Positions 17,339 through 42,037 are shown, counted from the first letter of the stretch. The stretch: 42,037 nt of DNA from a virus (IMGVR_UViG_2721755721_000007), one strand, 5' to 3'. Program-made: numbers and translations. The notes: generated by a model from the letters alone, not told the origin.

Positions 17339-17348
17339 TGCTTCGGCT
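17339..17348. repeat. 10-bp att core / direct repeat TGCTTCGGCT (island right junction)
   Basis: Identical 10-mer at 31235-31244; flanking sequence differs, and E gene sequence resumes exactly at the repeat. Confidence 0.75.
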
Positions 17349-17482
17349 ACATGAGTCAAATATGAAAGGATGTGAATGATTTGATTACGTTTTAGCTATA
17401 GAATTGAAATGGAAAATCCTTGAATGCAATACAACGTGCAATACATGGATGAAAACCATCACTCATTTAACAAGAGGAATCT

Positions 17483-18388: not shown

Positions 18389-18418
18389 AAGGTCAAATGC
18401 TTTTGACAAATAAAATCT

Positions 18419-18445
18419 ATCGCCAGTTTTACTGGCGACTTTTAA
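18419..18445. terminator. Bidirectional intrinsic terminator between the convergent DUF2971 and terS-like genes
   Basis: Hairpin CGCCAG-tttta-CTGGCG flanked by A/T-rich runs on both strands. Confidence 0.45.
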
Positions 18446-18494
18446 GCAACAAAGAACCACCTAAGCACTCTTCCTACCTATGGTTTCATTTGTT

Positions 18495-19046
18495 TTAACT
18501 TCGCTGATTATCCTTGATATACCTTTCAGCCATATCTGGAATGTTATCTGAGATCTGGTAAGCTCGAATAAATGCTTTACTGACCTCCATCTTAATGAAG
18601 TCCTGATACCGTTTTTCCATGCCAGGAAACTGTCGACAGATCGCAAGTGGAAGACTATCAATGATTGCTCCAACTTCCCCAGTTAATTTCGACAAGGCAT
18701 AAGTCGCAAATGCAGTGTCAATTACCTCACCTGTTTCGCTGGCATTCTTCAGTTCCTGTGCGTCGGCCTGCGCACGCGTAAGTCGATGGCGTTCGTACTC
18801 AATAGTCCCTGGCTGGAGATCTGTCTCGCTGGCCTGCCGCAGTTCTTCAACTTCCCGGCGCAGCTTTTCGTTCTCAATTTCAGCATCCCTTTCGGCATAC
18901 CATCTTATAACGGCGGCAGAGTCATAAAGCACCTCATTACCCTTGCCACCGCCTCGCAGAACGGGCATTCCCTGTTCCTGCCAGTTCTGAATGGTACGGA
19001 TACTCGCACCGAAAATGTCAGCCAGCTGCTTTTTGTTGACTTCCAT
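18495..19046 (-). CDS. Island terminase small subunit, Nu1-like (183 aa): N-terminal ~100 aa near-identical to the prophage Nu1, C-terminal ~80 aa divergent
   Basis: MEVNKKQLADIFGASIRTIQNWQEQGMPVLRGGGKGNEVLYDSAAV... matches the prophage Nu1 (36879..37424) to about residue 100, then diverges but stays alignable. Confidence 0.85.
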   Translation of the reverse strand: MEVNKKQLADIFGASIRTIQNWQEQGMPVLRGGGKGNEVLYDSAAVIRWYAERDAEIENEKLRREVEELRQASETDLQPGTIEYERHRLTRAQADAQELKNASETGEVIDTAFATYALSKLTGEVGAIIDSLPLAICRQFPGMEKRYQDFIKMEVSKAFIRAYQISDNIPDMAERYIKDNQRS

Positions 19047-19267
19047 TGTTCATTCCACGGACAAAAACAGAGAAAGGAAACGACAGAGGCCAAAAAGCTC
19101 GCTTTCAGCACCTGTCGTTTCCTTTCTTTTCAGGGGGTATTTTAAATAAAAACATTAAGTTACGACGAAGAAGAACGGAAACGCCTTAAACCGGAAAATT
19201 TTCATAAATAGCGAAAATCCGCGCGCCTGACGCCCCGTAGCCTGTCAGATCGCCGGAAAGGACCCGC
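18739..19267. repeat. ~0.53 kb segment near-identical to the prophage nu1 5' half plus cosB (copy of 37117..37643)
   Basis: Aligns base-for-base with 37117..37643 apart from a few substitutions and a divergent cosN block. Confidence 0.85.
19060..19240. other. Island cos site: cosB-like Nu1-binding repeats identical to the prophage, cosN region altered
   Basis: R-site-like GGAAACG repeats as in lambda cosB. At the cosN position (19225-19236) the island reads cgcctgacgccc where the prophage reads aggtcgccgccc (5 of 12 differ). Confidence 0.7.
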
Positions 19268-19291
19268 CAGCCAGAGCGGGCCCTAATTTCA

Positions 19292-19675
19292 TCAACCAAT
19301 CAGCTTATAGCGACCATCCCGTGCATTGCGGCGTACACGCTCAATCTTGAGGCATAGCGCCGCATCTGGCTTTTTTGGGACAGGTACGCGGCAATATTCA
19401 GAAGCGCGAGGAATATTATTTATCCAGTCGATCACTTCACTTAAATACCAGGCCTTACGCCCTTCCGTAACCTGCACACGCTCCGGGAACTCTCCACTAG
19501 CCTCAAGGTTTAGCAGTGTACGCCGACTCAGGGTTGTAATTTCCATCACCTGATTCATATCAACAAGGCGCTCGCTTAAACACATTTTGTCAGCGATAGC
19601 TTTTAATTCCTCTACAGCTGGATTCGGGTACATCATTTCGGCAATTGGCTTAAGGTCATTGTAATCATTTTGCAT
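19292..19675 (-). CDS. AlpA/excisionase-like HTH DNA-binding protein (127 aa)
   Basis: C-terminal half MEITTLSRRTLLNLEASGEFPERVQVTEGRKAWYLSEVIDWI resembles the phage AlpA-family HTH. Confidence 0.55.
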   Translation of the reverse strand: MQNDYNDLKPIAEMMYPNPAVEELKAIADKMCLSERLVDMNQVMEITTLSRRTLLNLEASGEFPERVQVTEGRKAWYLSEVIDWINNIPRASEYCRVPVPKKPDAALCLKIERVRRNARDGRYKLIG

Positions 19676-19686
19676 TGTATCCCCCT

Positions 19687-20028
19687 TTACACACGAGCCA
19701 GCGGCTGAACAGAAATACCTGAGCCAACAAACGCTGCAATCTTTACTGACAGTTCTTTTACAGACTCAGGCCAGTTCAGAGCATCAACATTTAAGACACC
19801 TGTCTTATAGACCTGAGCCTGTGTTTTTTTCGCGGTGTCGATTTGTACAGCGGAAACATAAACCGCTTTACCTACGCTCGAACCATCCCATACCACCAGT
19901 GCACCTGTTGCATCTTCCTGCATCAGTGGCGTAAATGCAGGAATTACCCCTTTATTAGCTGAAAATATCCCCAGCGTAGTCACCAGTGCTTCAGTGCCAG
20001 CCATGAGTTCAGTGTAATGAGTAGCCAT
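19687..20028 (-). CDS. Head decoration protein, lambda gpD homologue (113 aa), island-encoded
   Basis: TPLMQEDATGALVVWDGSSVGKAV... aligns with lambda gp[28 protein letters not shown]; similar length. Confidence 0.7.
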   Translation of the reverse strand: MATHYTELMAGTEALVTTLGIFSANKGVIPAFTPLMQEDATGALVVWDGSSVGKAVYVSAVQIDTAKKTQAQVYKTGVLNVDALNWPESVKELSVKIAAFVGSGISVQPLARV

Positions 20029-20037
20029 TGCTCCCCC

Positions 20038-21078
20038 TTAGCCAATGCGAACGGTAACAAAACGATTGATGCGGGCCGGTATTGGCTGTGGTGCTGAATG
20101 TGTCTGCACATATTCAATAGCCGGATCACCAGGCACAATATAGTTTTTCGGTGCAAGTTCGGCTTTAGTCAGCCCCATTCGGATTAGCTCCGGATCCTGA
20201 ATACCGCCATAGGCGACAATCCCCTGAAGAGCCGTATTGCCAAGCACCATCAAATCAGGATCAAGGAAATGTTTTTCAGTTCCGTCCTCGTCGGTATAAC
20301 GCCCGCTGTAAACAACAATCGCAACATCGCCCATATATCCTTTAAAACTCACCGAATCACCAAGGTCTTTAAGGGCCGTTTCCAGTTCGGAATTAGAACC
20401 ACGACGGGTATCCAGAGCCTCTTTTATCGCTCTGAATGAACGGTATTTCTTCCATACATTACCGCCCATAATGATGATATTAGTGACGCCCTCACTAAAT
20501 TCTGCGTAGCTCTCAATATCATCATTTGGATCAAAAGTTTCTTTATCCTTACCTGACCACTCAGTACCGCCAGACTGAGTGATGATATTTTGTGGTTTAA
20601 TATTCCAGTCCAGCTCATAACGTTCAATACCATCGCCCTCAATGATATTTTTCCCCGTTGTGATTGCCTGAACGGCAAGCCATTCAATACGTGCACGAAT
20701 AGCTTTAGCTTGATTTACAATCGCCTGTTTAACTTTAATATTACGCGCCCCAAAAGCATTGTATTGCTCAGGTGATACACCAGCAGGGCGCACAGCTAAC
20801 TTATTTGGATCAATGCTGCTTTTCGGCTTCATATAGCCTGGACGAATTGTTTTTGATTCGTACCCTTCGTCACGTGAAACTTTACTACCCACCATAGGAG
20901 AACAAAACGCTGCAATTGGGATATTTGGATCGTCGATTGTATCAAGAATAATATCGCGCGATCCAAACATTACCGAGCGAGTAAAAAACAAACTGGTAAA
21001 CAACGCATTTAGTTGTTTTTGTACATCTACAGCATTAACCACCTGTACAAGCTGGGTAGGCGAATATAAATCAACCAT
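20038..21078 (-). CDS. Major capsid protein homologue, lambda gpE family (~346 aa), island-encoded
   Basis: About 50% identical to lambda gpE over the C-terminal two-thirds (ITQSGGTEWS..., DTRRGSNSELETA.KDLG, GDVAIVVYSG). Start taken at MVDLYSPTQ, with AAGAGG 6 nt upstream; the tracked ORF extends a further 71 codons. Confidence 0.85.
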   Translation of the reverse strand: MVDLYSPTQLVQVVNAVDVQKQLNALFTSLFFTRSVMFGSRDIILDTIDDPNIPIAAFCSPMVGSKVSRDEGYESKTIRPGYMKPKSSIDPNKLAVRPAGVSPEQYNAFGARNIKVKQAIVNQAKAIRARIEWLAVQAITTGKNIIEGDGIERYELDWNIKPQNIITQSGGTEWSGKDKETFDPNDDIESYAEFSEGVTNIIIMGGNVWKKYRSFRAIKEALDTRRGSNSELETALKDLGDSVSFKGYMGDVAIVVYSGRYTDEDGTEKHFLDPDLMVLGNTALQGIVAYGGIQDPELIRMGLTKAELAPKNYIVPGDPAIEYVQTHSAPQPIPARINRFVTVRIG

Positions 21079-21252
21079 ACGCATCCTCTTTGCATTCATT
21101 AAAAATAATTGTGGATATATGCTATCACCGATATTTGTCATGCGAACACATGCAACCGAGTGCAATGTTGTATAAAGTTTTGGGGTGACAACTTCAGTGC
21201 GGACAATTAGTGTTAATATCTTCACTCCCTTTGGTCGGGATTTATGTAGCAT

Positions 21253-21283
21253 GCCGGAAAATTTATTTTTTCCGGCTTTTTTT
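21253..21283 (+). terminator. Terminator-like hairpin oriented against the island late operon
   Basis: GCCGGAAAA-tttatt-TTTTCCGGC followed by TTTTTTT on the plus strand, in the SSB/capsid-homologue intergenic region. Confidence 0.4.
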
Positions 21284-21294
21284 ATTGGCAATAT

Positions 21295-21744
21295 TTAAAA
21301 CGGGATATCATCTCCCCATTGCTCATTATCTCCCTCTGGTGGCTGGCTTCCTTGCTGATCTGCCTGTTGTTTTGCTCTGTTCAGTGCGTCAGTAGCCTGC
21401 CCCTGTTGGCCTTTTTTGCCGCCCGGTCGCACCGATCGCGCACTGATTACGCTGTCTGCGATAACCTGCCAGCCCTGCCGCGTTTCGCCGTTCTGTCCAG
21501 TCCACTGGCTCATCTGCATGTTACCCGCCACGCTCAGGAGTTCGCCTTTGTGATGCTTTGCCAGCGCGTCGGCTTGTCTGCCAAACGCCAGGACAGATAA
21601 CCACAACGTCGCCAGACCGTCATCCGACTGACTGCAGGGCAGTGATACCGCCATACGCGCCAGCGTCATGGGGGTGCCCTTGCTGGTCTGTTTTGTCTGC
21701 GGGTCGTCCACCAACCGCCCGTAAACTGATATTTGCGCCGTCAT
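21295..21744 (-). CDS. ssb: Single-stranded DNA-binding protein (149 aa)
   Basis: OB-fold-like N-terminus, Gly/Gln-rich linker and the acidic C-terminal tail ...WGDDIPF typical of bacterial and phage SSB. Confidence 0.8.
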   Translation of the reverse strand: MTAQISVYGRLVDDPQTKQTSKGTPMTLARMAVSLPCSQSDDGLATLWLSVLAFGRQADALAKHHKGELLSVAGNMQMSQWTGQNGETRQGWQVIADSVISARSVRPGGKKGQQGQATDALNRAKQQADQQGSQPPEGDNEQWGDDIPF

Positions 21745-21998
21745 GCTGCCTGCTCTCCGGACTTAATATTGATTGTTGTCACTTCCTCCGCTTCAGCAAT
21801 CTCCCGTTCGGTCAGCGTGGCAAAGTTTGCAGCCGCCGTTGTCATGAATGCGCTTATCAGTTCGGGATGTGCTTTCGCGTATCCTTCCCCGGCGTTGCGG
21901 TCTATTGCCTTAATCGCCACCCTTAGCCAGTGTTCAGCCATATCAAGGGCGCGGTAATGTGGCTTTATATGTTTGTTCAGTTTTCCTGATGTGTGCAT
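21741..21998 (-). CDS. Hypothetical protein (85 aa)
   Basis: ORF tightly coupled to ssb (4-nt overlap); no recognised motif. Confidence 0.4.
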   Translation of the reverse strand: MHTSGKLNKHIKPHYRALDMAEHWLRVAIKAIDRNAGEGYAKAHPELISAFMTTAAANFATLTEREIAEAEEVTTINIKSGEQAA

Positions 21999-22039
21999 TT
22001 TTATTTTTACCCCCTCGTTTAAAAAGTTTTTTGTGCACC

Positions 22040-22277
22040 ACCACCTTGTCTACCTTGTCTACCTGATTAGTTATCAGGCCAGTAATGGCGCGGGTTTCAG
22101 GGAGGTAGACAGCCCCAAATAGCTGTCTACCTCATCTCTACCCGTCTCCTTACCTGTCTACAAAAATGGGTAGATAAGGTAGATAACAGGTAGACAGTGA
22201 AAAATAGTTATCTACCTGCATTAATACATTGAAATAAAAGTATTTTCTTTCAGTCAGGTAGACAAGGTAGATAACCA
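22040..22277. repeat. Iteron array, putative island replication origin
   Basis: At least 10 copies of an 8-bp GGTAGA(C/T)A motif in both orientations within ~240 bp, immediately 3' of the primase-helicase gene. Confidence 0.75.
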
Positions 22278-22287
22278 TTGCCATTTT

Positions 22288-24039
22288 TTATAAAAACGCA
22301 TCGCAATCATCAGTAGTCGTTGCGTTGGTCTGCGTGACTCCCTTAACTTTTCGCGTAATATATTCATATCCGTAAACTTTCGCCGCTGACCTCATAGCCT
22401 TTCCGAACTCATTCACGCTCAAACATTTCCCCTTTCCTGTGTATGCCATGAAGGCCATATAGACACGGTAAAGGCTGTTTCTGGTCGTGTACTTCACGGT
22501 GTCACCACCACCGCCCATCATTAGCCCACGAGCTTCCTCCAGAAACTCCAGCGCCGCGCAAAGCTCAACAACCGGATCCGTTTGCTGCTTTATTGCCAGA
22601 GCTTCATCACCGTCACGCTGTTCCAGTAATAAAGCCCGTGCCTTTTCAGGGGCAGCAAAATTAGCCAGCAAGCGGCGGATAATTACGGGGATTTCTGCCG
22701 CTATCTTTTCCGGTAATTCCTTGTCTTTTTCGTCCTCCCTTACAATGTTGTCGAACCGGAAAATCACCCGACGGCGTGACACACCTCCGGCCCGTTCGGT
22801 AAAGATCATCGGGTCGTTATTGGTTGCCAGTACCACCGCCCTTATTATCGTCGTGAATCGCTTCTCATATTTCGGGTTAATTTCAACGGGATCGCCTCCC
22901 GTGATTTTCTTGATGCCCGTGCCTTCCCCCGTATATTTCGGCTGATCGGCAAGGACGATAAGACGACTCCCGACAACCTGCGCGCGCCCTCCTGCATCAT
23001 CGAGTGATGTCATCTCCGCGCTTACGGTGTTCTGTTTGCCAGCAAGCAGGGTGGCAATATGGGTAAATGTACTCTTACCGCTTCCCCCGTCTCCGGTGGC
23101 CTCAATGAACATCTGCCAGTCGTAGCGGTTCGCCATAATCATGTATAACGCGGCACATATACGCATCATCTTACGCGGGTCTTTTCTTGCAGCATGTTCA
23201 AGCCATTTATGGAAATTTGGCGCATTATCGCGGATGTTTTCCCCTGCTACTGGTGGCGTGTACTCAATGCCATTGTGCGTGGTGCTCCAGTGCTCCGGCG
23301 AGTGCGGAGAAAATTCCCCCGTTTTCAGGTTAAGCACACCATTAGTGAACGGTAGCAAATCACCGGACGGCTCCCCCATGGGGTCGGCAATAACTTTTAA
23401 CGCTTCCACGGCGTTATTGATTACACGTTTGCTGAACGTGGCCCTGTGCTCTGAATAGATCGCCACCATTTCGCGGCTCAGCTCCATTGTGCTGACCGGA
23501 CACCATACCCCGCCGCGCCATACGTGGACGATTTCACTTTCTGCATGAACACACACACCATCAAAGCGATCGGCAAGTAGTTGTGCACGTTCACTGTCTG
23601 CCATCTGTGAAAGTTGCGCCTTTTGCTTCGTCGGAAGATTAAGCACCAGACTTTCCCCACGCTCGCATTCCTCTTTGAGTCGCGGCAACTGCTCGGATAA
23701 ATCCACTGGGCTGGTGTCAGTAATCCCCGCGTATTCGTGTACGGTCTTCACTCCAGCCACAGCCAGTAACGTAACAATCTGCGTCATGCTGTGCTCTGTG
23801 ATATGTCCTGCGCGGTAAACACGCACACACTGACGATCTTCATCAATGATCCGGTAATCGGTGATATTTTTCAGTTGCTCATCAGCCAGCACGACAGGCG
23901 GCACATCGTCGGCGGCAATATGTTTACCCGCCCATTCCCGCCACTCTTTCGCATGGCTCCACGCATCACTACCTGCAAAGATGATTACCTCTGTCAGTCT
24001 GTCGCGTGGCTGTTTTTTTAAGTTCGGTGCCAGTTTCAT
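22288..24039 (-). CDS. Primase-helicase (P4/D5-like, SF3 helicase domain), 583 aa
   Basis: Walker A GDGGSGKST and layout typical of the P4-family primase C-terminal domain; positioned as a PICI pri-rep gene next to the iterons. Confidence 0.8.
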   Translation of the reverse strand: MKLAPNLKKQPRDRLTEVIIFAGSDAWSHAKEWREWAGKHIAADDVPPVVLADEQLKNITDYRIIDEDRQCVRVYRAGHITEHSMTQIVTLLAVAGVKTVHEYAGITDTSPVDLSEQLPRLKEECERGESLVLNLPTKQKAQLSQMADSERAQLLADRFDGVCVHAESEIVHVWRGGVWCPVSTMELSREMVAIYSEHRATFSKRVINNAVEALKVIADPMGEPSGDLLPFTNGVLNLKTGEFSPHSPEHWSTTHNGIEYTPPVAGENIRDNAPNFHKWLEHAARKDPRKMMRICAALYMIMANRYDWQMFIEATGDGGSGKSTFTHIATLLAGKQNTVSAEMTSLDDAGGRAQVVGSRLIVLADQPKYTGEGTGIKKITGGDPVEINPKYEKRFTTIIRAVVLATNNDPMIFTERAGGVSRRRVIFRFDNIVREDEKDKELPEKIAAEIPVIIRRLLANFAAPEKARALLLEQRDGDEALAIKQQTDPVVELCAALEFLEEARGLMMGGGGDTVKYTTRNSLYRVYMAFMAYTGKGKCLSVNEFGKAMRSAAKVYGYEYITRKVKGVTQTNATTTDDCDAFL

Positions 24040-24335
24040 TTTTTGCCCCTGAATGCGTTAATCATGCTTTTCATTTTCTGGATGTTTCCCCGCGCTTTTT
24101 CCCTGCTGATGGGCTTACTGCGGGGTGCGGCATATACCAGGGAAAAATCACGCCGGAACTGATAAACAGGCATCACGCAGTCATAGCTATACCCCTCACG
24201 GCGGTAAGTGATGCGCCGTTCTGCCACGCCTTTAATCGTTACTGTGCCGCCGTATTTATCGCGGTAAATATCGCCGTTCATAAATTCAGGCCGAGCGGGG
24301 CCGCTGGCAATAAAGCCAGAATTTTTCATTTCCAT
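24036..24335 (-). CDS. Hypothetical protein (99 aa), translationally coupled to the primase
   Basis: ATGA overlap with the downstream primase start; no recognised motif. Confidence 0.45.
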   Translation of the reverse strand: MEMKNSGFIASGPARPEFMNGDIYRDKYGGTVTIKGVAERRITYRREGYSYDCVMPVYQFRRDFSLVYAAPRSKPISREKARGNIQKMKSMINAFRGKK

Positions 24336-24352
24336 ATTATTTATTCCTCGAC

Positions 24353-24574
24353 TTAACTCGACTTATTTGATAGCAGGGCACTATTTATTGCGTCATTGAG
24401 TTTTTCTGCTGATTCATCAATAAGTGACAACAGGCCATAAGCAATATTTGCATCTTCATTGTCATTTATGCAATCAAGCCACATATTTAATATTGCTTTT
24501 GCTGAATTATTTAAAGTTAATGAACTTTCTGCACATGCTAACAATTTAAAAAAGACTTCCCGTTCTGTATTCAT
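24353..24574 (-). CDS. Hypothetical small protein (73 aa)
   Basis: Part of a head-to-tail run of small ORFs in the island early operon; AT-rich. Confidence 0.35.
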   Translation of the reverse strand: MNTEREVFFKLLACAESSLTLNNSAKAILNMWLDCINDNEDANIAYGLLSLIDESAEKLNDAINSALLSNKSS

Positions 24575-24766
24575 TTAATCCCCCACCAGCTTACTTTCTT
24601 CCTCAATCAGGAAACTAGCGACACTTCCCGAAAGGCGCGCCAGTAGGCTCGCCAGCGCGGATATATCAGCATCTGTAATTTTGTTCGGGTATACCTCAAG
24701 AAGGCGGCAAATAATTTCTGTCTGGTGCGCACGTTCAGCGGCTTCGTGTAATGTGATTTCCTGCAT
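24575..24766 (-). CDS. Hypothetical small protein (63 aa)
   Basis: Tightly packed ORF in the same operon. Confidence 0.35.
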   Translation of the reverse strand: MQEITLHEAAERAHQTEIICRLLEVYPNKITDADISALASLLARLSGSVASFLIEEESKLVGD

Positions 24767-24951
24767 TAATGCACCTCTTTTAATTCATACACTGCTGAAA
24801 TAATGACTTGTGATAAGCCATATTCTGATGATTCGCTTCTCACCGCAGCAATAGCCGTCTGAACATTAACAGCCTTCACGTTCTGAGTGATACCAATTGT
24901 GTGGCCCAGTGGGTTAACAGCTCGGGCAAATACACGGAAGGTTTTAAGCAC
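24766..24951 (-). CDS. Hypothetical small protein (61 aa)
   Basis: Tightly packed ORF in the same operon. Confidence 0.35.
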   Translation of the reverse strand: MLKTFRVFARAVNPLGHTIGITQNVKAVNVQTAIAAVRSESSEYGLSQVIISAVYELKEVH

Positions 24952-25207
24952 GGCACACCTCCTGACGAATACGGGCGGCGAATATCATCACGTAGCCAGT
25001 TGGGGATTGCTGGCGGGCTTCCTGTTCGCTGGCGGCCTCGATGTGTATTACGCGTGGTTGTGCGGTGCTCAGGGCGATAAAACGCCAGATGTATTTATTC
25101 AGGTTGTGCGAATCCCGCCCTTGCGGGTGTGTGGTATGATTTCTCATAGCTACCTCGATACTGTTGCTATCGTTGGTGGTTAGACGCCCTGTATGTGTTG
25201 CGAGCAC
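24944..25207 (-). CDS. Hypothetical small protein (up to 87 aa; start uncertain)
   Basis: First ORF of the leftward operon, divergent from the RHH gene; an internal Met (MRNHTTHPQ...) is a possible alternative start. Confidence 0.35.
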   Translation of the reverse strand: MLATHTGRLTTNDSNSIEVAMRNHTTHPQGRDSHNLNKYIWRFIALSTAQPRVIHIEAASEQEARQQSPTGYVMIFAARIRQEVCRA

Positions 25208-25244
25208 TGCAGGGCGTTGTTATATAGCAATAAAACATGATAAG

Positions 25245-25286
25245 GTGTGTACCTATCAAGAATCATACTAAGCAATAGGTACACAC
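25245..25286. promoter_or_regulatory. Perfect 12-bp inverted repeat (GTGTGTACCTAT-N18-ATAGGTACACAC) abutting the RHH start codon; putative operator
   Basis: Read directly; arms at 25245-25256 and 25275-25286, lying in the divergent intergenic region between the early operon and the RHH gene. Confidence 0.55.
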
Positions 25287-25481
25287 ATGTCAACTATCAT
25301 TCAACGTGATAAACAACCGAAAGGTGCAGGTAAAGCACCAGCATTCCAAGTCCGTATTAACCCAGAATTAAAAGAACAAATGGTTAATGTCGCTGCCAAA
25401 GAAGGGATGAGCTTAGGTAACTGGCTAAAAGAACTGGCTCGTGCCGAACTAATAAAACAAGGAATAACACCTAAAGGCTGA
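25287..25481 (+). CDS. Small ribbon-helix-helix (CopG/Arc-like) DNA-binding protein, 64 aa
   Basis: Predicted beta-strand FQVRINPELKEQM followed by helices VNVAAKEGMSLGNWLKELARAEL; typical RHH layout. Confidence 0.6.
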   Translation: MSTIIQRDKQPKGAGKAPAFQVRINPELKEQMVNVAAKEGMSLGNWLKELARAELIKQGITPKG

Positions 25482-25504
25482 TAATTTGCATAAAGGATTC
25501 TTCT

Positions 25505-26854
25505 ATGACAACAAGTCACAAAATGCTAGAAATCAGTAAAGAACAATTTGATGTATTTTTCTATGGTCGTACACCATACGTAAAAACCTTTTCGGAGGAA
25601 ATCTGTTGGTTCAAATTTATAAAGGATGATGTCACGATCTTAGCAACAATTGTTTTTTGTAAAATAGATAATGATTACAACGCTATATTTCTAGGTAGGG
25701 ATTTAGATAAAAAATTTAGAGCGATTAAAGTAATTGTATCCCGTGAATCTAAAGATGATTTAATTACTGATATGGAAAAAGCCATACCAGAGCTATTATC
25801 ACTACACAAGAACGGTTGTTTTATACAGGGTGACGAATCAGAGTCGGCATTTTCAATATTCCTAGCCAAAGTTCCAGAACATAAAAAAAACGTTTATCTA
25901 AGAATGCTACTTGAGGAACCCAAACACTATCCTGCATTTATTGTTATGCAAGAGTTAGCTTATTGGTGTAAAGATCCTGATGGAATATTCATCAGAGATT
26001 TCCAGAGTGCTTCATTTAACTCTCGCTTATTCGAACTTTATCTAAACGCAGTTTTCTACGAAATGGATTTCGTAATATGCAGAGATTATGCTCAACCTGA
26101 TTATATTATCTCAAAAAATGGCATTGATATTGCTGTAGAAGCTGCCACAGTTGCAGAACAAGAGGAACCTACCGAGAAATTGATACTTGATCATGAGGCA
26201 GTAGAAGATCTTCAGAGATATGTAAAAGAACAAATGCCATTCAAATTTGCCCGCACTCTATTAAAGAAAGTTAGGCATAAACCTGAACCCTTAAAATTAT
26301 GCTATTGGGAACTAGATCATACAAAAGGAAAGCCTTTCATTATTGCTTTACACGATTACTCACGCAGATTTTCGATGAGTATATCAATGCCAGCACTACA
26401 AAGCTATCTGTATGGTGTAGATATGGATTCTGGAAGTAAAATTGAACAACATTTATTTGAAAATCGAAGTATACAATCTAATTTTTTCGGCTCTAATAAA
26501 AATGAGAATGTCTCAGCCATATTACTTGCGACACATGCCACCATCCCAAAATTTGATAGGATGGGAGTAGTGGCAGGGATTGAACAAAAAAATGTCAAAT
26601 CCATCGTTAGAGGTATTAAAACTGATGAAGGCTGTACCCCAATGCCTTTTACTGCTCTTGTCAATGCACCTTCATATCAAGAACCATGGTGTACAGCAAT
26701 ATACATGTTTCATAATCCGAAGGCATTAAATCCTATACGCCCTGAATTATTCCCAAGAGTTATTCATATTTTTGAAGAAGATGGAGAAATAGTTCAATAC
26801 TTACCACCTAATTATATAATCTCATCAACTACGCACGTATTTGAATTTAAGTGA
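25505..26854 (+). CDS. Orphan protein of unknown function (449 aa), co-oriented with and 24 bp downstream of the RHH gene
   Basis: Long uninterrupted ORF in a markedly AT-rich segment; no Walker A, HEPN, or other motif I can recognise. Confidence 0.6.
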   Translation: MTTSHKMLEISKEQFDVFFYGRTPYVKTFSEEICWFKFIKDDVTILATIVFCKIDNDYNAIFLGRDLDKKFRAIKVIVSRESKDDLITDMEKAIPELLSLHKNGCFIQGDESESAFSIFLAKVPEHKKNVYLRMLLEEPKHYPAFIVMQELAYWCKDPDGIFIRDFQSASFNSRLFELYLNAVFYEMDFVICRDYAQPDYIISKNGIDIAVEAATVAEQEEPTEKLILDHEAVEDLQRYVKEQMPFKFARTLLKKVRHKPEPLKLCYWELDHTKGKPFIIALHDYSRRFSMSISMPALQSYLYGVDMDSGSKIEQHLFENRSIQSNFFGSNKNENVSAILLATHATIPKFDRMGVVAGIEQKNVKSIVRGIKTDEGCTPMPFTALVNAPSYQEPWCTAIYMFHNPKALNPIRPELFPRVIHIFEEDGEIVQYLPPNYIISSTTHVFEFK

Positions 26855-26905
26855 TTTCAAATCCTATGGGTTTACCCCATAGGATTACATCCACTGTCTA
26901 AATTC

Positions 26906-27127
26906 TTACCACTCTCCCCTAATCCATGCCTGCACTTCTGAAAGACGATATGCAACAGCAGTGGAACCAATCTTGATCCGCTTAGGAAATTTTCCTTCCT
27001 TCTCCAGCTTCCAGCGTGTGCTGTTCGCAAGAGTGGTTAGCTCCCGACATTCTTTCTCACGGATCATACGATCGATATTAGGAATGTACTCCAGACCCTT
27101 TTTATCGACAATTGCCATTTTTTTCAT
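26906..27127 (-). CDS. alpA: AlpA-family transcriptional regulator (73 aa)
   Basis: MKKMAIVDKKGLEYIPNIDRMIREKECRELTTLANSTRWKLEKEGKFPKRIKIGSTAVAYRLSEVQAWI is a typical AlpA HTH. Confidence 0.8.
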   Translation of the reverse strand: MKKMAIVDKKGLEYIPNIDRMIREKECRELTTLANSTRWKLEKEGKFPKRIKIGSTAVAYRLSEVQAWIRGEW

Positions 27128-27176
27128 GTTAACCAGCCTTTTGTTTGTAAGCGACTCGTCAGAACCGTATTGATAT

Positions 27177-28748
27177 TTACTGAGAGCTCAGATCAACTTT
27201 CCAGGGCAACAGATCGCGTACCCGGTTTGCCGGCCAGTCCTGGATATGTTCAATGACGTAACGCAGCCACTTTTCTGGCTCCACATTGTTCAGACGGCAT
27301 GTGCCGATCAGCGAGTACAACACCGCCGCATGTTCACCACCGCTGTCGGAACCCGCGAACATCCAGTTTTTCCGGCCTACGGCCACTCCCCGTAAGGCGT
27401 TCTCTGCGATGTTGTTGTCGATTTCCACCCAGCCATTACTGCAGTACACGTTCAGTGCATCCCACTGTTTCAGCAGGTATGCGAACGCTTTTGCCGTATC
27501 TGAGTGACGCGACAGTGTTTTCATCTGTTGCTGTATCCAGTCATACAGTGACTGCATCAGTGGCGCGGCTCTGGCTTTTCTTGCCGCCAGACGCTGTTCT
27601 GCTGAACAGCCCCGGACCTCTGCCTCGATGGCATACAGTTCACCGATACGCTGCAGGGCTTCCGTGGTGATGTAGGTGGGCGCTCTTGCATGCACATCGT
27701 GGATTTTTCTCCGGGCATGAGCCATACACGCGGCTTCCGTTATTCTGCCGGATTCGTATAACGCCCGGTAACCACCGTAAGCATCGGCCTGAAGCACACC
27801 GCTGTAACCGGCCAGGTGATTTTGTGGATGGATACCTTTCCGGTCCGGACTGTACGCGAACCAGACCGCCGGGGGCATCTGTGAACCGGCGTTACGGTCA
27901 TCACGGACGTAGACCCACAGCCGGGCTGTCCGGGTTTTACCGCTGCCCGGCTCCTGGACCGGGACGGGGATATCATCAGCATGGACTTTACCGGGCATCA
28001 GCACATACTGGCGCAGGACGTCATACAGCGGCTCCAGCAGTTCAGCAACAGCACCTGTCCAGCGCCCCAGTGTGGCACGGCTCAGCTCCACTCCCTGACG
28101 ACGGTATATTTCTGACTGGCGGTATAACGGCAGATGGTCTGCATATTTCCCGGTGACAACATGGGCCAGAAGCCCCGCTCCGGCATAACTGCGTGCAATG
28201 GGTTTTGAAGGTACTGGTGCCTGCACGATATGGTCGCACCGGCAACAGGCCTGTTTCGGACGTTGTGTTTCGATAACCTTAAAGGCGCTGCTGATAAGCT
28301 CCAGTTGCTCTGACACATCACATCCCAGAGAACTGAGTTCACCACCACAGGCAGGACAGCATTCCTCTTCCGGCCGGATAACCCGGGTTTCACGGGGAAG
28401 TGAGGCCGGTAACGGTTTACGGGCTGAAGACTGGCGCAGGGCGGATGGCAGTACCGGGTCATATTGCTCACCCAGCGTTTCCGCCATTTCTTCCTGAAGT
28501 GCGCTGATTCGCTCCTGTGCTTCCTGTATCTGCCGTTCGGTTTTTGCACGAAGTTTTTCTGAGCTTTTACCGAACTGCATACGTTGCAGTTTCGCAACCA
28601 GCGCCTTCAGCCGGTTGATTTCGGAAGCATAAGCCGCCACCCGCTGTGAGAGCAGGCGGTTGTATTCAGCCATCTGGCGGATGGTGTCCTGTTGCGTCTG
28701 CAACAGTGCCCGCAGGCGGGCGTTCTCATGAGCAAGTGAGGTGTCCAT
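27177..28748 (-). CDS. IS66-family transposase TnpC (523 aa)
   Basis: Leucine-zipper-like N-terminus, CxxC...CxxC zinc-finger region and DDE core typical of IS66 TnpC. Confidence 0.85.
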
Positions 28749-28767
28749 ATCCTCACTTTACAACGGG

Positions 28768-29115
28768 TTATATGCGGATTCCAGCGCGTTCCGTTCGTTT
28801 CGGGTGCTTCCAGTTGATACCTTCAAGAAGCATGGATAACTGAGCCGGAGTAAGGTGCACCTTGCCGTCACGGGTGACTGGCCAGACGAAGCGGCCCCGC
28901 TCCAGGCGTTTGGTGAAGAGGCACAGTCCGTCACTGTCAGCCCACAACACTTTTATCTGGTCACCCCGGCGTCCGCGGAAGATGAACAGGTGTCCGGAGA
29001 ACGGGTCATCCTTCAGGACGTTCTGAACTTTTGATGCCAGGCCGTTAAAGCCATTTCGCATATCGGTGATACCTGCAACCAGCCAGATACGCGAACCTGC
29101 AGGGAGAGATATCAT
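28768..29115 (-). CDS. IS66-family TnpB (115 aa)
   Basis: MISLPAGSRIWLVAGITDMRNGFNGLASKVQ...HLFIFRGRRGD is the conserved IS66 Orf2. Confidence 0.85.
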   Translation of the reverse strand: MISLPAGSRIWLVAGITDMRNGFNGLASKVQNVLKDDPFSGHLFIFRGRRGDQIKVLWADSDGLCLFTKRLERGRFVWPVTRDGKVHLTPAQLSMLLEGINWKHPKRTERAGIRI

Positions 29116-29792
29116 CAGTGGCTGCTCCCTTTTATTTCGCGGATAAGTGTCTGTAATAACGCCGGCGTCAGTTTACCTTTAAGCCTGAGAGTTCCGGCCG
29201 GCAGAACCAGCTCACAACACAGACTGTCGGACGGTGTATTTATCTGCTCTGGTTCCTGTGCGGGGGCCGGGATTTTATTATCCGGCTCCGGCGTTAACGT
29301 CACGGGAAGCAGTGCCGGCATATTTTTTCCGGAAGGCAGCAGGCCACCTTTCCGGTATTGATGGCGCCAGTTGAAGAGCAGGTTATCGTTGATTCCGTTT
29401 TCCCGGGCGATCTGCGCCACACAGGCTCCGGGCTGTAGTGACTGCTCCACTAAGGCGATTTTAAACTCATAAGGGAAGTTGGGCCGCCGGGGACGTTTTT
29501 TTACCACGGGGGCTTCGGATATAACGGTGCTTTCAGGACGTACGACTGGTACCGTGGAAAATTGTCCGTAAAGGCAGGCATCAAGTTCCTGCTCCGACAT
29601 GCCTGCGGGCAAAGGCCACGAAAGGCCAGCTCTCCGAAAGCGCACGAACATACTACAAACTGTTGATTTTGGTACACTCAGGCGACGCCCGGCCACAACC
29701 CGGGGTAAATGTTCTTCAAAGTGAAGACGTAAAGCTTCAGTGATCCAGGTCCGGTGTTTCATACGATAGTGTCCATTAAAAATGATGGACAT
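29115..29792 (-). CDS. IS66-family TnpA/Orf1-like HTH protein (start uncertain; tracked ORF 225 aa)
   Basis: Contains the HTH motif PGACVAQIARENGINDNLLFNWRHQYRKGG typical of IS66 Orf1; the long N-terminal extension may not all be translated. Confidence 0.6.
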   Translation of the reverse strand: MSIIFNGHYRMKHRTWITEALRLHFEEHLPRVVAGRRLSVPKSTVCSMFVRFRRAGLSWPLPAGMSEQELDACLYGQFSTVPVVRPESTVISEAPVVKKRPRRPNFPYEFKIALVEQSLQPGACVAQIARENGINDNLLFNWRHQYRKGGLLPSGKNMPALLPVTLTPEPDNKIPAPAQEPEQINTPSDSLCCELVLPAGTLRLKGKLTPALLQTLIREIKGSSH

Positions 29793-31072
29793 TATTTTTG
29801 TAGAGCCGGAGGAAACAGACCAGACGGTTTAAATGAGCCGGTTACCTTTTGTTTGAGGATTGTCACTTTTGAATCAGCACCTGCGATGCTATTGAGATAT
29901 GTAGTCCAGAGTTCCAGAGCATCCAGTTTTTTAGCCATAAACTTACTCCGGTTGTAAACACCTGCCACGCCAGGTAGCGCATGGCCTAACAGTTGTTCTA
30001 CTACATAAAATTCAACACCGAGATCACTTAGATGAGTAGATAGCGTTCTTCTAAGGTCGTGTAGTGACCATTGTTTTTCATGGCCCAAACGTTTACCGAT
30101 TTTCCCCCCAATCTTGCTTACGCTTTCTCTAATTCGCAGACTTCCCAGCACATAACCAGTATGTTTTGTCTCTTCGTGAACATCCGTTACCCACTGTCGT
30201 AGAATTTCAGGTACTGGTCTGACGATTTCAACACCAGTTTTTGAGTGATCTTTTGGTACAGTCCAAACCCAACTTTCGAGATCCCATTCGCTCCATTCTG
30301 ATAATCGGGCTTCACTCATTCGACATCCAAATACTGTACAAAGCACAAACATTTTTCGCGTGTATTCAGACATTAGTTTTAAATCAGGCTCGACAAAAAT
30401 TGCCTTCCAGAGCTGGCCGAGTTCGGCTTCATCCAGAACCCGATCCCGCTTACCTGCAATCTGCCCCACATCACTCATGCGCAAATCCTTTAAAGCATCA
30501 CACGTCGCGTACTGGCGTACCCGACAAAAACGAAGAGCTAATTTAGTGTCAGAAAAAACATACGCCGCCATAACTGGTGCATTACGTTTAATTCGGTCAA
30601 AACAGTCCAGCCATTCATATAGGTGAGTGTCATTTACGGGCAAATGACCGATATAGGGAAAGATATGCTTTCGAAATCTGCCAAGCGTTACAGCATGAGT
30701 TTTACGACGCACCTTACAGTAATTTTCATACCAGTAATTTAGTGCATCCTCCACTGTGACCGGCTTTAAGCGTTCTTCAGCCTGAATCTTAATCTGGATA
30801 CGCGGATCACGTTTGTCAGCCAACCAACCACGGCACTCGTCGCGCTTTTCCCTTGCCTGTTTGAGTGACATATCAGGATATTTACCCAACGTTAGCCAGA
30901 CCGGAGCAGCCCGGCCACCTGCTAACCTGTAGAAGAAAACAAAGCTCACAGCCCCTTTAGTACTCACACGAATAGAAAGCCCCTTTCCATCAGCAATGGT
31001 GATCTGCTTTTCTCTGGGTTTCCCCAGATATCCTTTAAGCGCTTTGTCGCTCAGTTTGTTCTCGCCAGCCAT
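29792..31072 (-). CDS. int: P4-type tyrosine integrase; native 3' end interrupted by the IS66 at ~29846
   Basis: H-x-x-R box (HDLRRT), LLGH and a conserved Tyr in GVYNR near the C-terminus. Start taken at MAGENKLSDK. The reading frame runs into the IS, adding ~18 foreign codons. Confidence 0.85.
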   Translation of the reverse strand: MAGENKLSDKALKGYLGKPREKQITIADGKGLSIRVSTKGAVSFVFFYRLAGGRAAPVWLTLGKYPDMSLKQAREKRDECRGWLADKRDPRIQIKIQAEERLKPVTVEDALNYWYENYCKVRRKTHAVTLGRFRKHIFPYIGHLPVNDTHLYEWLDCFDRIKRNAPVMAAYVFSDTKLALRFCRVRQYATCDALKDLRMSDVGQIAGKRDRVLDEAELGQLWKAIFVEPDLKLMSEYTRKMFVLCTVFGCRMSEARLSEWSEWDLESWVWTVPKDHSKTGVEIVRPVPEILRQWVTDVHEETKHTGYVLGSLRIRESVSKIGGKIGKRLGHEKQWSLHDLRRTLSTHLSDLGVEFYVVEQLLGHALPGVAGVYNRSKFMAKKLDALELWTTYLNSIAGADSKVTILKQKVTGSFKPSGLFPPALQK

Positions 31073-31234
31073 TTTTAGCCCCAAAAAGCAATACAAGCTG
31101 CAATACAGAGATGATTGCAACACACAGATAACGAGGAAAATTCAGTGAAAGCACCAGATAAACTTATTCTTTATTATCAAAAGATTAAGTGTAAAAACCA
31201 GCAACTACACGAAAGCCTCAGAAAGCCATGCTAA

Positions 31235-31244
31235 GTGCTTCGGC
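31235..31244. repeat. 10-bp att core / direct repeat TGCTTCGGCT (island left junction)
   Basis: Identical to 17339-17348; capsid gene E sequence resumes on the far side. Confidence 0.75.
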
Positions 31245-31480
31245 TTGACATATCCCGGTGTAAATTCAGAGGTGGAGCCGCCACGGGAGCGGATAACCTC
31301 ACCGGAAACAATCGGCGAAACGTACAGCGCCATGTTTACCAGTCCCGGAATTTGTGAGAGATAGACTTTCTCCGTGGTGAAGGGATAGCTCTCACGGAAA
31401 AAGAGACGCAGAAACAGCGGATCAAACTTAAATTTCTTCTCATTTGCCGCCAGCAGCTGGGCGGTTGTGTACATCGACAT
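31235..31480 (-). pseudogene. E: 5' fragment of major capsid gene E (codons 1-82), reading into island DNA to a stop at 31205
   Basis: MSMYTTAQLLAANEKKFKFDPLFLRLFFRESYPFTTEKVYLSQIPGLVNMALYVSPIVSGEVIRSRGGSTSEFTPGYVKPKH matches the lambda gpE N-terminus, then 9 foreign codons (LAWLSEAFV). Confidence 0.9.
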
Positions 31481-31535
31481 AAAAAAATCCCGTAAAAAAA
31501 GCCGCACAGGCGGCCTTTAGTGATGAAGGGTAAGG

Positions 31536-39004: not shown

Positions 39005-39472
39005 TCATCGAAGGCATTGCGTCCTGATGTATTCCTGAAGCGTTCTCAGTGCTGTTTGGTCGCGGATAATTCCGTCCCGGACACCGAGAACGTTTCGTCC
39101 AGCAACTGGAGAGAGTTCGACGGTGGCATCATTGCCCATGCCGGAGGCGCTGGAGGTTTCGGCTGAGGATGGCACAGGGCATTTTCCTTTGACGAGCACC
39201 CGACCACCATTATCAAGCTTGCGCCGAAGAGCATCATTTTCAGCTTTCGCATCAGCTAACTCCTTCGTGTATTTATCATCGAGTGCATCAGCATCACGCT
39301 GGCGCTGCTGCATGTCAGTAATGGTGGCGTTCGCCTTCTCCAGTTCACTGGCCTTGTTATCGCGCTGTTCTTTGTAGGCGATTGCATTATCACGGTAATG
39401 ATTAACAGCCCATGACAGGCAGACGATGATGCAGATAACCAGAGCGGAGATAATCGCGGTTACCCTGCTCAT
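39005..39472 (-). CDS. Rz: i-spanin Rz
   Basis: [41 protein letters not shown]... has the lambda Rz N-terminus with a divergent C-terminus; start overlaps the R stop (ATGA). Confidence 0.85.
39046..39252 (-). CDS. Rz1: o-spanin Rz1 (lipoprotein), embedded in Rz in the +1 frame
   Basis: [19 protein letters not shown] with a lipobox Cys, then a Pro-rich stretch [11 protein letters not shown], as in lambda Rz1. Confidence 0.8.
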
Positions 39473-39966
39473 TGTTGCCCCCACAAACAGACCTCACGCT
39501 CAATCTCACGACGAGTCATCAGGCCTTTCCATTGCTTACCGCCAGCGTATGCCCAGCGACGTAGCTGGTCACATGCGCCCTTGATATCGCCCTGGTTTAT
39601 TTTGCGAAGAAGAGTAGATGTTCTGAAATTGCCTGCGCCCACGTTATAGACGAACGAGTAAAGAGCGCCGCGCGTTGTTTCCGGTATATCGACTTTGATG
39701 TACGGGTTAATTTGTCTGGCTACCGTGGCAAGGTCTTTATTCAGGAGGGCTTTGCATTCTGCTTCGGTATACGTTTTACCGGGAATGATGTCTTTTCCTG
39801 TATGCCCGTGACATACAGTCCATACGCCAACGATATCTTTGTATGGTATGTAGCTGACACCTTCCAGACCATCGTTACCACTTGGGCCAGTGATTAACAC
39901 TGATGCTATAGCAATTGCTCCGCCACCAATAGCAGCAGCAACGGCTTTTCGTAATGATGGAGGCAT
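39469..39966 (-). CDS. R: SAR endolysin (GH24 lysozyme with N-terminal signal-anchor-release domain), P21 R-like, 165 aa
   Basis: [44 protein letters not shown]... is near-identical to the P21 endolysin as I recall it. Confidence 0.85.
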
Positions 39967-40097
39967 TATTCACCTCTCGCAGCCTTGCGCTTATCTTCTT
40001 TAATCTTGAAATAAAGGTTTGTCAGGTACGTCAGCAGGCCAAATACCAAGCTACCCAGCACACCTATTGCTGCCCACTGTGAGGGCGTGACTTTATC
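39966..40097 (-). pseudogene. S: 3' remnant of a pinholin S gene (P21 S-like), 5' part displaced by the IS66 insertion
   Basis: Encodes ...[43 protein letters not shown], matching the P21 holin C-terminal half; upstream codons are IS terminal sequence. Confidence 0.8.
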
Positions 40098-40182
40098 GTA
40101 AGCGTAAACTGACCGCCGTATGTAGCCATCAGACGAGAATTGGTAACTTAGACGCCCATCTGATATAGACGGACATCTAAGT

Positions 40183-40537
40183 ATGGAATTACAGGACTGG
40201 CGAAAAGAACCTCGTAAAAACTATTCGAATGAATTCAAACTTCGTATGGTGGAACTGGCATCACAACCTGGAGCTTGTGTTGCACAGATTGCACGTGGAA
40301 AATGGCGTCAATGATAATGTTATTTTCAAATGGCTCAGGCTCTGGCAGAACGAAGGGCGTGTTTCGCGGCGTCTTCCGGTAACGACCTCTTCTGACACTG
40401 GCGTTGAATTATTACCTGTAGAAATAACGCCGGATGGAGCAGAAAGAACCTGTGGCGGCCATTGCGCCGTCTTTATCCACTTCCACTCAGACCAGAGTCA
40501 GTGCCAGTTCCTGCAAGGTGGAATTCCGTCACGGTAA
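40183..40537 (+). pseudogene. IS66 tnpA/orf1 with a frameshift
   Basis: Frame 1 gives [43 protein letters not shown]; the conserved continuation ...NVIFKWLRLWQNEGR lies in another frame, consistent with a 1-nt insertion near 40300. Confidence 0.7.
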
Positions 40538-40606
40538 CATGACGCTGGAAAATCCATCGCCAGAGCTGCTCACAGTGTTGATCCGTGAACTGACCGGGAG
40601 GGGAAG

Positions 40607-40957
40607 ATGATCTCACTCCCATCAGGTACCCGTATCTGGCTCGTTGCCGGCGTTACCGATATGCGTAAATCCTTCAACGGACTGGGAGAACAGGTACAAC
40701 ATGTGCTGAATGATAATCCCTTCTCCGGTCACCTGTTTATCTTCCGTGGCCGACGGGGTGACACCGTCAAAATTCTTTGGGCTGATGCTGATGGTCTGTG
40801 CCTGTTCACCAAACGCCTGGAGGAAGGCCAGTTTATCTGGCCTGCGGTACGTGACGGCAAGGTATCCATTACCCGCTCGCAACTGGCAATGCTCCTCGAT
40901 AAGCTGGACTGGCGTCAGCCAAAAACATCCAGCCGTAACTCACTGACAATGTTGTAA
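40607..40957 (+). CDS. IS66-family TnpB (116 aa)
   Basis: MISLPSGTRIWLVAGVTDMRKSFNGLGEQVQ...HLFIFRGRRGD is the conserved IS66 Orf2. Confidence 0.85.
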   Translation: MISLPSGTRIWLVAGVTDMRKSFNGLGEQVQHVLNDNPFSGHLFIFRGRRGDTVKILWADADGLCLFTKRLEEGQFIWPAVRDGKVSITRSQLAMLLDKLDWRQPKTSSRNSLTML

Positions 40958-40987
40958 AAAACTCCTGACCGCATTATAAAAACGGTC

Positions 40988-42037
40988 ATGAGTCAGAAAT
41001 ACCTCATTCGCATCGCAGAGCTGGAAAGGTTGCTCTCTGAGCAGGCTGAAGCCCTCCGTCAGAAAGACCAGCAACTGAGTCTGGTTGAAGAGACGGAAGC
41101 CTTCCTGCGCTCTGCACTGACACGTGCCGAAGAAAAGATCGAAGAAGATGAACGGGAAATAGAACATCTGCGGGCTCAGATAGAAAAACTGCGCCGGATG
41201 CTGTTCGGTACCCGTTCTGAAAAACTGCGTCGTGAAGTTGAACTGGCTGAGGCTCTGCTGAAACAACGTGAACAGGACAGCGATCGTTACAGTGGGCGGG
41301 AAGACGATCCTCAGGTTCCCCGCCAGTTGCGACAGTCGCGCCATCGTCGTCCGTTACCGGCACACCTTCCCCGTGAAATACACCGCCTGGAGCCAGAAGA
41401 AAGCTGTTGCCCGGAGTGTGGCGGTGAGCTGGATTATCTGGGGGAAGTCAGCGCTGAACAGCTGGAACTGGTGAGCAGTGCCCTGAAAGTGATCCGCACA
41501 GAACGGGTAAAAAAAGCCTGTACAAAATGTGACTGTATTGTTGAAGCACCGGCGCCGTCCCGCCCGATAGAGCGTGGTATCGCGGGCCCCGGATTACTTG
41601 CCCGCGTGTTAACGGGAAAATACTGCGAACATCTGCCACTGTATCGTCAGAGTGAAATCTTTGCCCGCCAGGGTGTCGAACTGAGCCGGGCCTTACTCTC
41701 CAACTGGGTTGACGCGTGCTGCCAGTTAATGACACCGGTGAATGATGCCCTGTACCGTTATGTAATGAACACCCGCAAGGTTCACACTGATGACACACCG
41801 GTAAAGGTACTGGCACCGGGTCAGAAAAGGCGAAAACAGGGCGTATCTGGACGTATGTCCGGGATGATCGCAATGTGGGTTCGTCATCTCCTCCAGCGGT
41901 CTGGTTCGCGTACTCGCCGAACCGGCAGGGGAAACACCCGGAGCAACACCTCCGCCCCTTCCGGGGTATCCTGCAGGCGGATGCGTTCACAGGTTACGAC
42001 AGGTTGTTCAGTGCAGAACGTGAAGGTGGTGCACTGA
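40988..42037 (+). pseudogene. IS66 tnpC, frameshifted near 41830 and truncated by the window end
   Basis: Matches IS66 TnpC up to ~LAPGQ; the conserved continuation [26 protein letters not shown]...GILQADAFTGYDRLF is in a different frame. Confidence 0.7.

Follow-up and report, generated by a model that had tools for sequence, protein, structure and literature searches.

Results

Lysis genes at the end of the window

The window (the whole stretch of 42,037 nucleotides analysed here, from viral contig IMGVR_UViG_2721755721_000007) closes with a group of minus-strand lysis genes abutted by an insertion sequence, the genes of which face the opposite way. The minus-strand region is recognizable from its gene content as the downstream end of a lysis cassette of the phage-21/DLP12 type, with a pinholin, a SAR endolysin and Rz/Rz1. 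The features are listed in Table 1.

Table 1. Positions of the lysis genes, the ISEc23 element, the capsid gene pieces and the embedded PICI within the window
Feature	Position	Strand	Match	State
Lambda-E-type capsid gene, C-terminal piece	16558-17334
Helper-embedded PICI, 13.9 kb	~17349-31245			Within lambda-E-type capsid gene
Lambda-E-type capsid gene, N-terminal piece	31205-31507
Rz i-spanin gene	39005..39484	minus	PF03245, E = 5.7e-29, profile positions 1-125/126	Intact
Rz1 o-spanin lipoprotein gene	39046..39252	minus	PF06085, E = 3.8e-21, profile positions 1-41/41	Intact
R21/RrrD-type SAR endolysin gene, 165 aa	39469..39966	minus	PF00959, E = 8.9e-46	Intact
P21-type pinholin (essD/S21 family)	39966..40097	minus	PF04971, E = 1.7e-20, profile positions 25-63/64	3' remnant
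ISEc23 (IS66 family), element positions 1-1940 of 2532	40098..42037	plus	Alignment to intact copy	Right end outside window
tnpA	40183..40610	plus		Split into three frames by two extra G (40297, 40436)
tnpB, 116 aa	40607..40957	plus	PF05717, E = 1e-36; identical to reference TnpB	Intact
tnpC (DDE transposase), 5' 60%	40988..42037	plus	PF13007, PF13005, PF03050	Frameshift at codon 280

The endolysin gene has its own ribosome-binding site, and its product carries a Gly/Ala-rich N-terminal SAR segment (residues 8-27) followed by the triad E35-D44-T50 (E-X8-D-X5-T). It differs from DLP12 RrrD (PDB 4zpu) at 4 of 165 residues (~97.6% identity, E = 3e-109), with residues 1-60 identical, and it matches phage 21 R21 (PDB 3hde) over its full length (E = 2e-108). 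The exact protein was found in 8,772 collection blocks. These features identify it as an R21-type SAR endolysin, a type that has been defined experimentally, and release from the membrane is predicted for the present protein.

The Rz reading frame comprises 159 amino acids with a GTG start, or 155 when begun at the ATG at 39472 as annotated in relatives, and it differs from each of two relatives by one conservative residue. Rz1 is identical in sequence to its relatives, has the lipobox VVGC and lies nested out of frame within Rz. Full-length PF03245 and PF06085 matches, with Rz1 embedded in another frame of Rz, are the arrangement of a two-component spanin. The sequence-only reading, which described the SAR endolysin and Rz/Rz1 as intact, was thus borne out for these three genes.

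The pinholin gene is incomplete. What is left of it overlaps the endolysin start and consists of the stop codon and 43 of 71 codons (D29 to E71), which encode the loop, TMD2 and the C-terminal tail. Its match to PF04971 (‘Bacteriophage P21 holin S’) takes in the last two thirds of that family's sequence. Codons 1-28, including M1, M4 and TMD1, are missing; P21-type pinholins are characterized by a dual start and by two TMDs, a SAR-like TMD1 and a pore-forming TMD2, of which only TMD2 is left here. On this evidence, the sequence is a gene remnant and not a functional member of the PF04971 class II holins. An intact gene of 71 amino acids is present in strain 600468 (L004), where the protein begins MKSMDK... 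and contains the dual-start motif of phage 21.

To place the break, a 1.2-kb query from the cassette was compared with E. coli genomes. More than 1,100 genomes were matched, with identities of up to 99.9%, and in every matching genome the alignment breaks off at window position 40097/40098, the point at which identity to intact essD-rrrD cassettes ends. The left end of the IS66-family element (GTAAGCG...) begins at 40098, directly at the holin break. An identical 35-nt holin/IS junction was found in two independent IMG/VR contigs, indicating that the junction is real and inherited. It was found in none of 5,426 complete E. coli genomes (0/5,426), and the left junction was also not found in metagenomes or species-representative genomes.

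The insertion sequence is a consensus ISEc23 copy

The element starts at 40098 with the left inverted repeat GTAAGCGTAAACTGACC and has the tnpA-tnpB-tnpC order and the leucine-zipper, zf-IS66 and PF03050 domains of the IS66 family; two of the three genes are frameshifted here. RefSeq labels it ‘IS66-like element ISEc23 family’. The start of tnpB overlaps the tnpA stop in an ATGA at 40607, and the out-of-frame tnpC ORF ends exactly at the window end. The left repeat, TnpB, and TnpA and TnpC after repair all match the named ISEc23. The other GTAAGCG inverted repeat, at the right end, was located in a sister contig with the same holin/IS junction (L016+L023; repeat at 8625-8638 of L016).

When aligned to an intact copy (L001 4001-6532), the window's ISEc23 showed 0 substitutions and three 1-bp indels in 1940 bp. 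Two are additional G residues in tnpA, at 40297 (GG 40297-40298) and 40436 (GG 40436-40437). In the third, an A5 run in tnpC has lost one A, leaving A4 at 41825-41828 (codon 280). Deletion of both G residues yields a 141-aa TnpA identical to the RefSeq reference, and removal of the indels likewise restores the TnpC prefix exactly. The sequence-only reading had placed frameshifts in tnpA and tnpC at about 40300 and 41830; both are present, and the second tnpA insertion had been missed.

These indels are private to the window's copy to different degrees. None of the three occurs in the sister contig, where tnpA, tnpB and tnpC are intact (141, 116 and 537 aa). Among tnpA segments from 8,069 ISEc23 copies in the 5,426 E. 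coli genomes, neither +G was present, as follows from a best full-length match of 98.9%. Neither was found in IMG/VR, and the first was also absent from species-representative genomes. The wild-type sequence stands at the first +G site in 25 viral contigs, and 24 of 24 other ISEc23 copies in viral contigs show the same gaps against the window's insertions. An exact-product look-up returned no record of the frameshift-specific tnpA ORFs (43, 102 and 58 aa). The 349-aa frameshifted TnpC, in contrast to these, was found in six contigs, each time at an unrelated locus away from any holin; such recurrence of the -A allele in a few other genomes makes at least that change biologically plausible.

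An old, decaying element would not be expected to show three private indels and zero substitutions. The copy is, to judge by this comparison, a consensus ISEc23, and its earlier description as degenerate does not hold, given that the indels are missing from the sister with the same junction. We lean modestly towards sequence errors rather than very recent slippage mutations as their source. This explanation is itself imperfect, since it is odd for errors to cluster three times in 1.6 kb when both the surroundings and a second multicopy IS look clean: the neighbouring sequence has no indels over more than 25 kb, the 2.7-kb ISCro1 copy in the window shows 0 differences, and over 8,968 bp compared with ET665, the complete relative nearest to the window's prophage, there were 25 substitutions and no indels.

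A serious competitor, to which we give somewhat less than an even chance, is that all three frameshifts are real, leaving a dead ISEc23 copy fixed in place and the holin disruption irreversible. All three sites are slippage-prone (G to GG twice, A5 to A4), the -A allele is seen in other genomes at other loci, and the rest of the assembly looks accurate, so that a local high error rate amounts to special pleading. On the other hand, indels with zero substitutions are no spectrum of neutral decay, and no other of more than 8,000 copies has either +G. Furthermore, the sister has the same insertion with an intact element, and outside the IS it shows just 2 substitutions relative to the window, and no indels, over 13.6 kb (1 substitution in 6.1 kb of flank). 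Even if real, the frameshifts would be very recent. That they are programmed recoding features rather than defects is effectively refuted by the population comparison: some IS families do use programmed -1 frameshifting and the tnpC site lies within an A-run, but in thousands of ISEc23 copies these indels are missing and both TnpA and TnpC read through uninterrupted, each tnpA change is a +1 insertion at a site that is not slippery, and IS66-family expression depends on the ATGA coupling that is present here.

The far side of the element

Just one junction lies in the window, so two flanking holin halves cannot be observed there. The sister contig is the sole close relative that reads through the element; it ends 373 nt past it, inside ydfD. 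Beyond its right inverted repeat (...GACGCTTAC) the sequence continues with GAGCAGCCGGATAATG..., at codon 51 of a RecE-like exonuclease gene, and then enters ydfD. This far flank, consisting of the 5' part of the exonuclease gene and ydfD, shares the strand of the lysis genes. The exonuclease/ydfD region belongs to the early-left region of a Qin/Rac-type prophage and is intact in strain G3/10 beside rspB. The three reference ISEc23 copies (L001-L003) are 2532 bp long with perfect 8-bp target duplications, whereas the sister's copy is without one (left ACTTTATC, right GAGCAGCC).

In ET665 the early region is of the lambda type (exo-bet-gam) and lies on the opposite strand, so that the sister's flank implies inversion, or recombination between prophages, by way of ISEc23 and not a simple insertion. 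Taking the right side from the sister contig, we conclude that the junction probably represents an IS-mediated rearrangement that cut the cassette from the late promoter. If the genome of the window matches the sister, the 5' holin fragment is not adjacent, and R-Rz-Rz1 is severed from Q/pR'. The claim that the holin is split by an IS66-family element is accordingly upheld as to the knock-out at the left end of ISEc23, while the split itself is unproven, because the sister shows exonuclease and ydfD without a duplication. The sequence-only reading proposed to look for the 5' holin fragment beyond the window end; in the sister's read-through, exonuclease/ydfD stands there instead, although the far-side join could be a short-read mis-join, as the flank sequence is repeated among prophages.

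A tentative alternative, which we rate at roughly one chance in three, is a simple insertion of ISEc23 within an otherwise complete holin gene, with the 5' 31 codons and the duplication ACTTTATC beyond the window and the sister's flank either mis-joined or a strain-specific later event. The sequence expected at the right junction would be GACGCTTAC-ACTTTATC-GAGCAGCTGTAAAAACC (right end of the IS, 8-bp duplication, 5' part of the holin). Past the right inverted repeat, ACTTTATCGAGCAGCTG would stand instead of the exonuclease sequence GAGCAGCCGGATAATG; written further, the right end would read GACGCTTAC+ACTTTATC+GAGCAGCTG, with the holin 5' part being ATGAAATCCATGGATAAG... Each of the three reference copies is a simple insertion flanked by an 8-bp duplication, and the sister ends shortly past the element in prophage-repeated sequence, where short-read assembly graphs typically tangle. 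Against it, the sole available read-through shows a different flank, and neither junction occurs in any complete E. coli genome. The combination of IS end, ACTTTATC and holin 5' part gave 0 matches in viral contigs and 0 in metagenomes, a weak negative. The reciprocal join was also sought: the 3' side of the exonuclease with the IS left end gave 0 matches in viral contigs. The exonuclease/IS junction was absent from the 5,426 complete E. coli genomes.

It was also observed that the sister's right flank GAGCAGCC matches 7 of the 8 holin bases that follow the break (GAGCAGCT). None of the recombination schemes that were tried explains GAGCAGCC versus GAGCAGCT.

Expression of the holin remnant

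Leaving the IS end, the reading frame continues into the holin remnant without a stop for at least 36 codons. No in-frame ATG, GTG or TTG was found upstream of an internal GTG at 40061, which lies inside TMD2, and outward promoter-like sites in the IS end were no commoner than in shuffled sequence. A fusion ORF running from the IS into the remnant was ruled out, as the open frame has no start codon. With 43 remaining codons and no usable start, no pinholin would be expected from the remnant.

It is extremely unlikely, in our judgement, that TMD2 and the tail are expressed from a non-canonical start or from GTG 40061 as an unregulated mini-pinholin. The open frame would permit it, and published truncation work found TMD2 to be enough for at least transient pores (bioRxiv 10.1101/2021.04.20.440580). 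In that same study, however, pores without TMD1 were unstable, and in the present sequence the open stretch offers no start codon, the GTG has no spaced Shine-Dalgarno sequence, and a promoter signal was not found.

The capsid gene carries a helper-embedded PICI

The lambda-E-type capsid gene of the prophage is also in two pieces (Table 1). The sequence-only reading had noted a disrupted capsid gene. The interruption is not the window's other IS66-family element but a 13.9-kb PICI with genes for a P4-type integrase, AlpA, a D5-type primase, SSB, its own E-like capsid, a D-like decoration protein and a Nu1-like product, flanked by a 10-bp identity block (TGCTTCGGCT). The other IS66-family element, ISCro1, lies inside the PICI at the last two int codons and is missing from the sister contig. 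Related islands occur at the same capsid site in ET665 and in many IMG/VR contigs.

The insert belongs to the published capE class of helper-embedded PICIs. It resembles Eco567.11capE (Tommasini, Mageeney & Williams 2023, PMC10111431) in its capsid-gene site, int, alpA, primase and own E-like capsid, and differs from it in bearing ISCro1 at the very 3' end of int. PICIs of the capE type have been shown experimentally to excise precisely on induction, restoring the helper capsid gene (PMC10111431), so the disruption is reversible by design. The conclusion that the prophage is unable to form its own capsid is thereby undercut, and the apparent capsid defect is better read as a reversible helper-embedded PICI integration than as IS damage.

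Discussion

Taken together, we consider it highly likely that the window ends in the downstream part of a lysis cassette that has lost its pinholin at an ISEc23 copy of consensus sequence, with endolysin and spanins intact and with a probable rearrangement at the junction. Loss of the pinholin would remove membrane depolarization at a programmed time, and holin-timed, saltatory lysis would be lost with it. If the remaining genes are still transcribed, the SAR endolysin could still be released spontaneously and, together with Rz/Rz1, bring about late and gradual lysis. Transcription of R-Rz-Rz1 is doubtful, given that the sister's far side carries exonuclease and ydfD and neither the holin 5' end nor Q/pR'.

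A passage of PMC9239132 (citing Xu et al. 2004) describes SAR endolysins as leaving the membrane spontaneously at a low rate without a holin, leading to later and more gradual lysis. The remark in the sequence-only reading that such an endolysin can lyse without a holin is in line with that passage. Since spontaneous release would be combined with intact spanins, on which disruption of the outer membrane depends, ‘lysis cassette inactivated’ is too strong a phrase; one of four genes has been lost. We infer that ‘holin lost, timing lost, expression uncertain’ is the accurate wording.

In one further scenario, a real IS fusion would have set the holin-less R21-Rz-Rz1 directly downstream of the co-oriented early-left genes dicB-ydfD-exo' of a Qin/Rac-type prophage, the order seen in the sister contig. 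Endolysin and spanins would then share transcripts with DicB, a division inhibitor, and YdfD, a lysis protein, forming a re-wired lysis unit that needs no holin, and real frameshifts would lock the arrangement. We regard this as very improbable. The loss of the pinholin at ISEc23, with a probable rearrangement, remains our preferred interpretation.

The value of these observations is mainly corrective: ISEc23 should be annotated with three suspect positions, and the holin as a 3' remnant. If the sister's far-side junction holds, the locus would add one more case of IS copies rearranging prophage regions.

The feature can be compared with several known systems. ISEc23 itself is the closest reference for the element, from which the window's copy differs by the two G insertions in tnpA and the A deletion in tnpC. 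IS insertions that disrupt genes of defective lambdoid prophages are known from E. coli and Shigella; IS629 and ISEc8 in prophages of O157 are examples. As in IS-disrupted lambdoid prophages generally, a late gene has been lost to an IS and IS copies offer sites for rearrangement, and nothing of substance differs here; the feature is ordinary prophage decay of a kind already known. What sets it apart from these is the rarity of the holin/ISEc23 junction, seen in 2 IMG/VR contigs and in none of the complete E. coli genomes. Among lysis systems, the gene order and overlaps are those of the phage 21 cassette (S21, R21, Rz/Rz1) and of essD-rrrD-rzpD/rzoD in DLP12. Unlike in those cassettes, the pinholin of the window is without codons 1-28, comprising both starts and TMD1, and it is thus the timing component of this well-known arrangement that is missing.

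Window boundaries

Both ends of the window fall exactly on stop codons, CTA at 1-3 being that of a minus-strand gene and TGA at 42035-42037 that of the frameshifted tnpC ORF, which suggests that the window is a provirus call trimmed to the limits of genes. The contig itself probably runs on past the window end.

The ISEc23 copy in the lysis cassette

In tnpC of the ISEc23 element that truncates the holin gene, the loss of one A from a run of five leads to a product of 349 aa. The same A5-to-A4 change was found in at least six other assemblies (L055-L060) and in three complete E. coli genomes, in each case in ISEc23 at an unrelated locus. Either the site is prone to recurrent slippage, or a defective variant is spreading. 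In tnpA, the G inserted at 40436 creates a new ATG, which opens a 58-aa ORF made up of this start and the C-terminal 57 residues of TnpA; the overlap with the tnpB start (ATGA) is kept.

The far side of such an element was observed in L016 (6107-9011), a part of the sister contig IMGVR_UViG_2695420728_000009, where an ISEc23 copy has the same holin junction as the window. There it adjoins a RecE-like exonuclease gene at codon 51, together with ydfD, both on the strand of the lysis genes. No target duplication was found for this copy; the 8-mer on its right flank, GAGCAGCC, matches the holin bases expected past the break, GAGCAGCT, at seven of the eight positions.

The island in the capsid gene

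The lambda-E-type major capsid gene of the prophage is interrupted by a 13.9-kb helper-embedded PICI that belongs to the capE class known from the literature and has the 10-bp identity block TGCTTCGGCT on both flanks. The features of this region and of ISEc23 are listed in the table below.

Features of the PICI region and of ISEc23
Feature	Window coordinates	Remarks
Capsid gene fragments (prophage)	16558-17334 and 31205-31507	
Identity block	17339-17348 and 31236-31245	
PICI	17349-31245	
PICI gene content		int, AlpA, D5 primase, SSB, D-like decoration gene, Nu1-like gene, DUF2971 gene
PICI's own E-like capsid	20038-21291	
449-aa ORF	25505-26854 (+)	
ISCro1 (IS66 family)	27148-29844	identical to a reference copy
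58-aa ORF	40434-40610	
tnpC frameshift	41825-41828	

The 449-aa ORF, which lies in the variable zone of the PICI between the primase region and int, runs opposite to the remaining PICI genes and has no Pfam match. ISCro1 is inserted at the final two codons of the PICI integrase gene, with a 9-bp duplication, CTTTTGTTT, on its two sides, and the integrase tail AG* gives way to 17 other residues. It is not present in the sister contig; another contig, UViG_2695420718_000005, ends 69 nt into ISCro1, so its strain seems to carry the insertion too.

In the sequence-only reading the prophage appeared unable to form its own capsid. The disruption of the gene stands, and a lasting loss of the capsid is not supported. 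Upon induction, capE-class islands are excised and the capsid gene is restored (PMC10111431); the cause of the capsid “defect” is thus not an IS, and by analogy with these islands it would be reversible.
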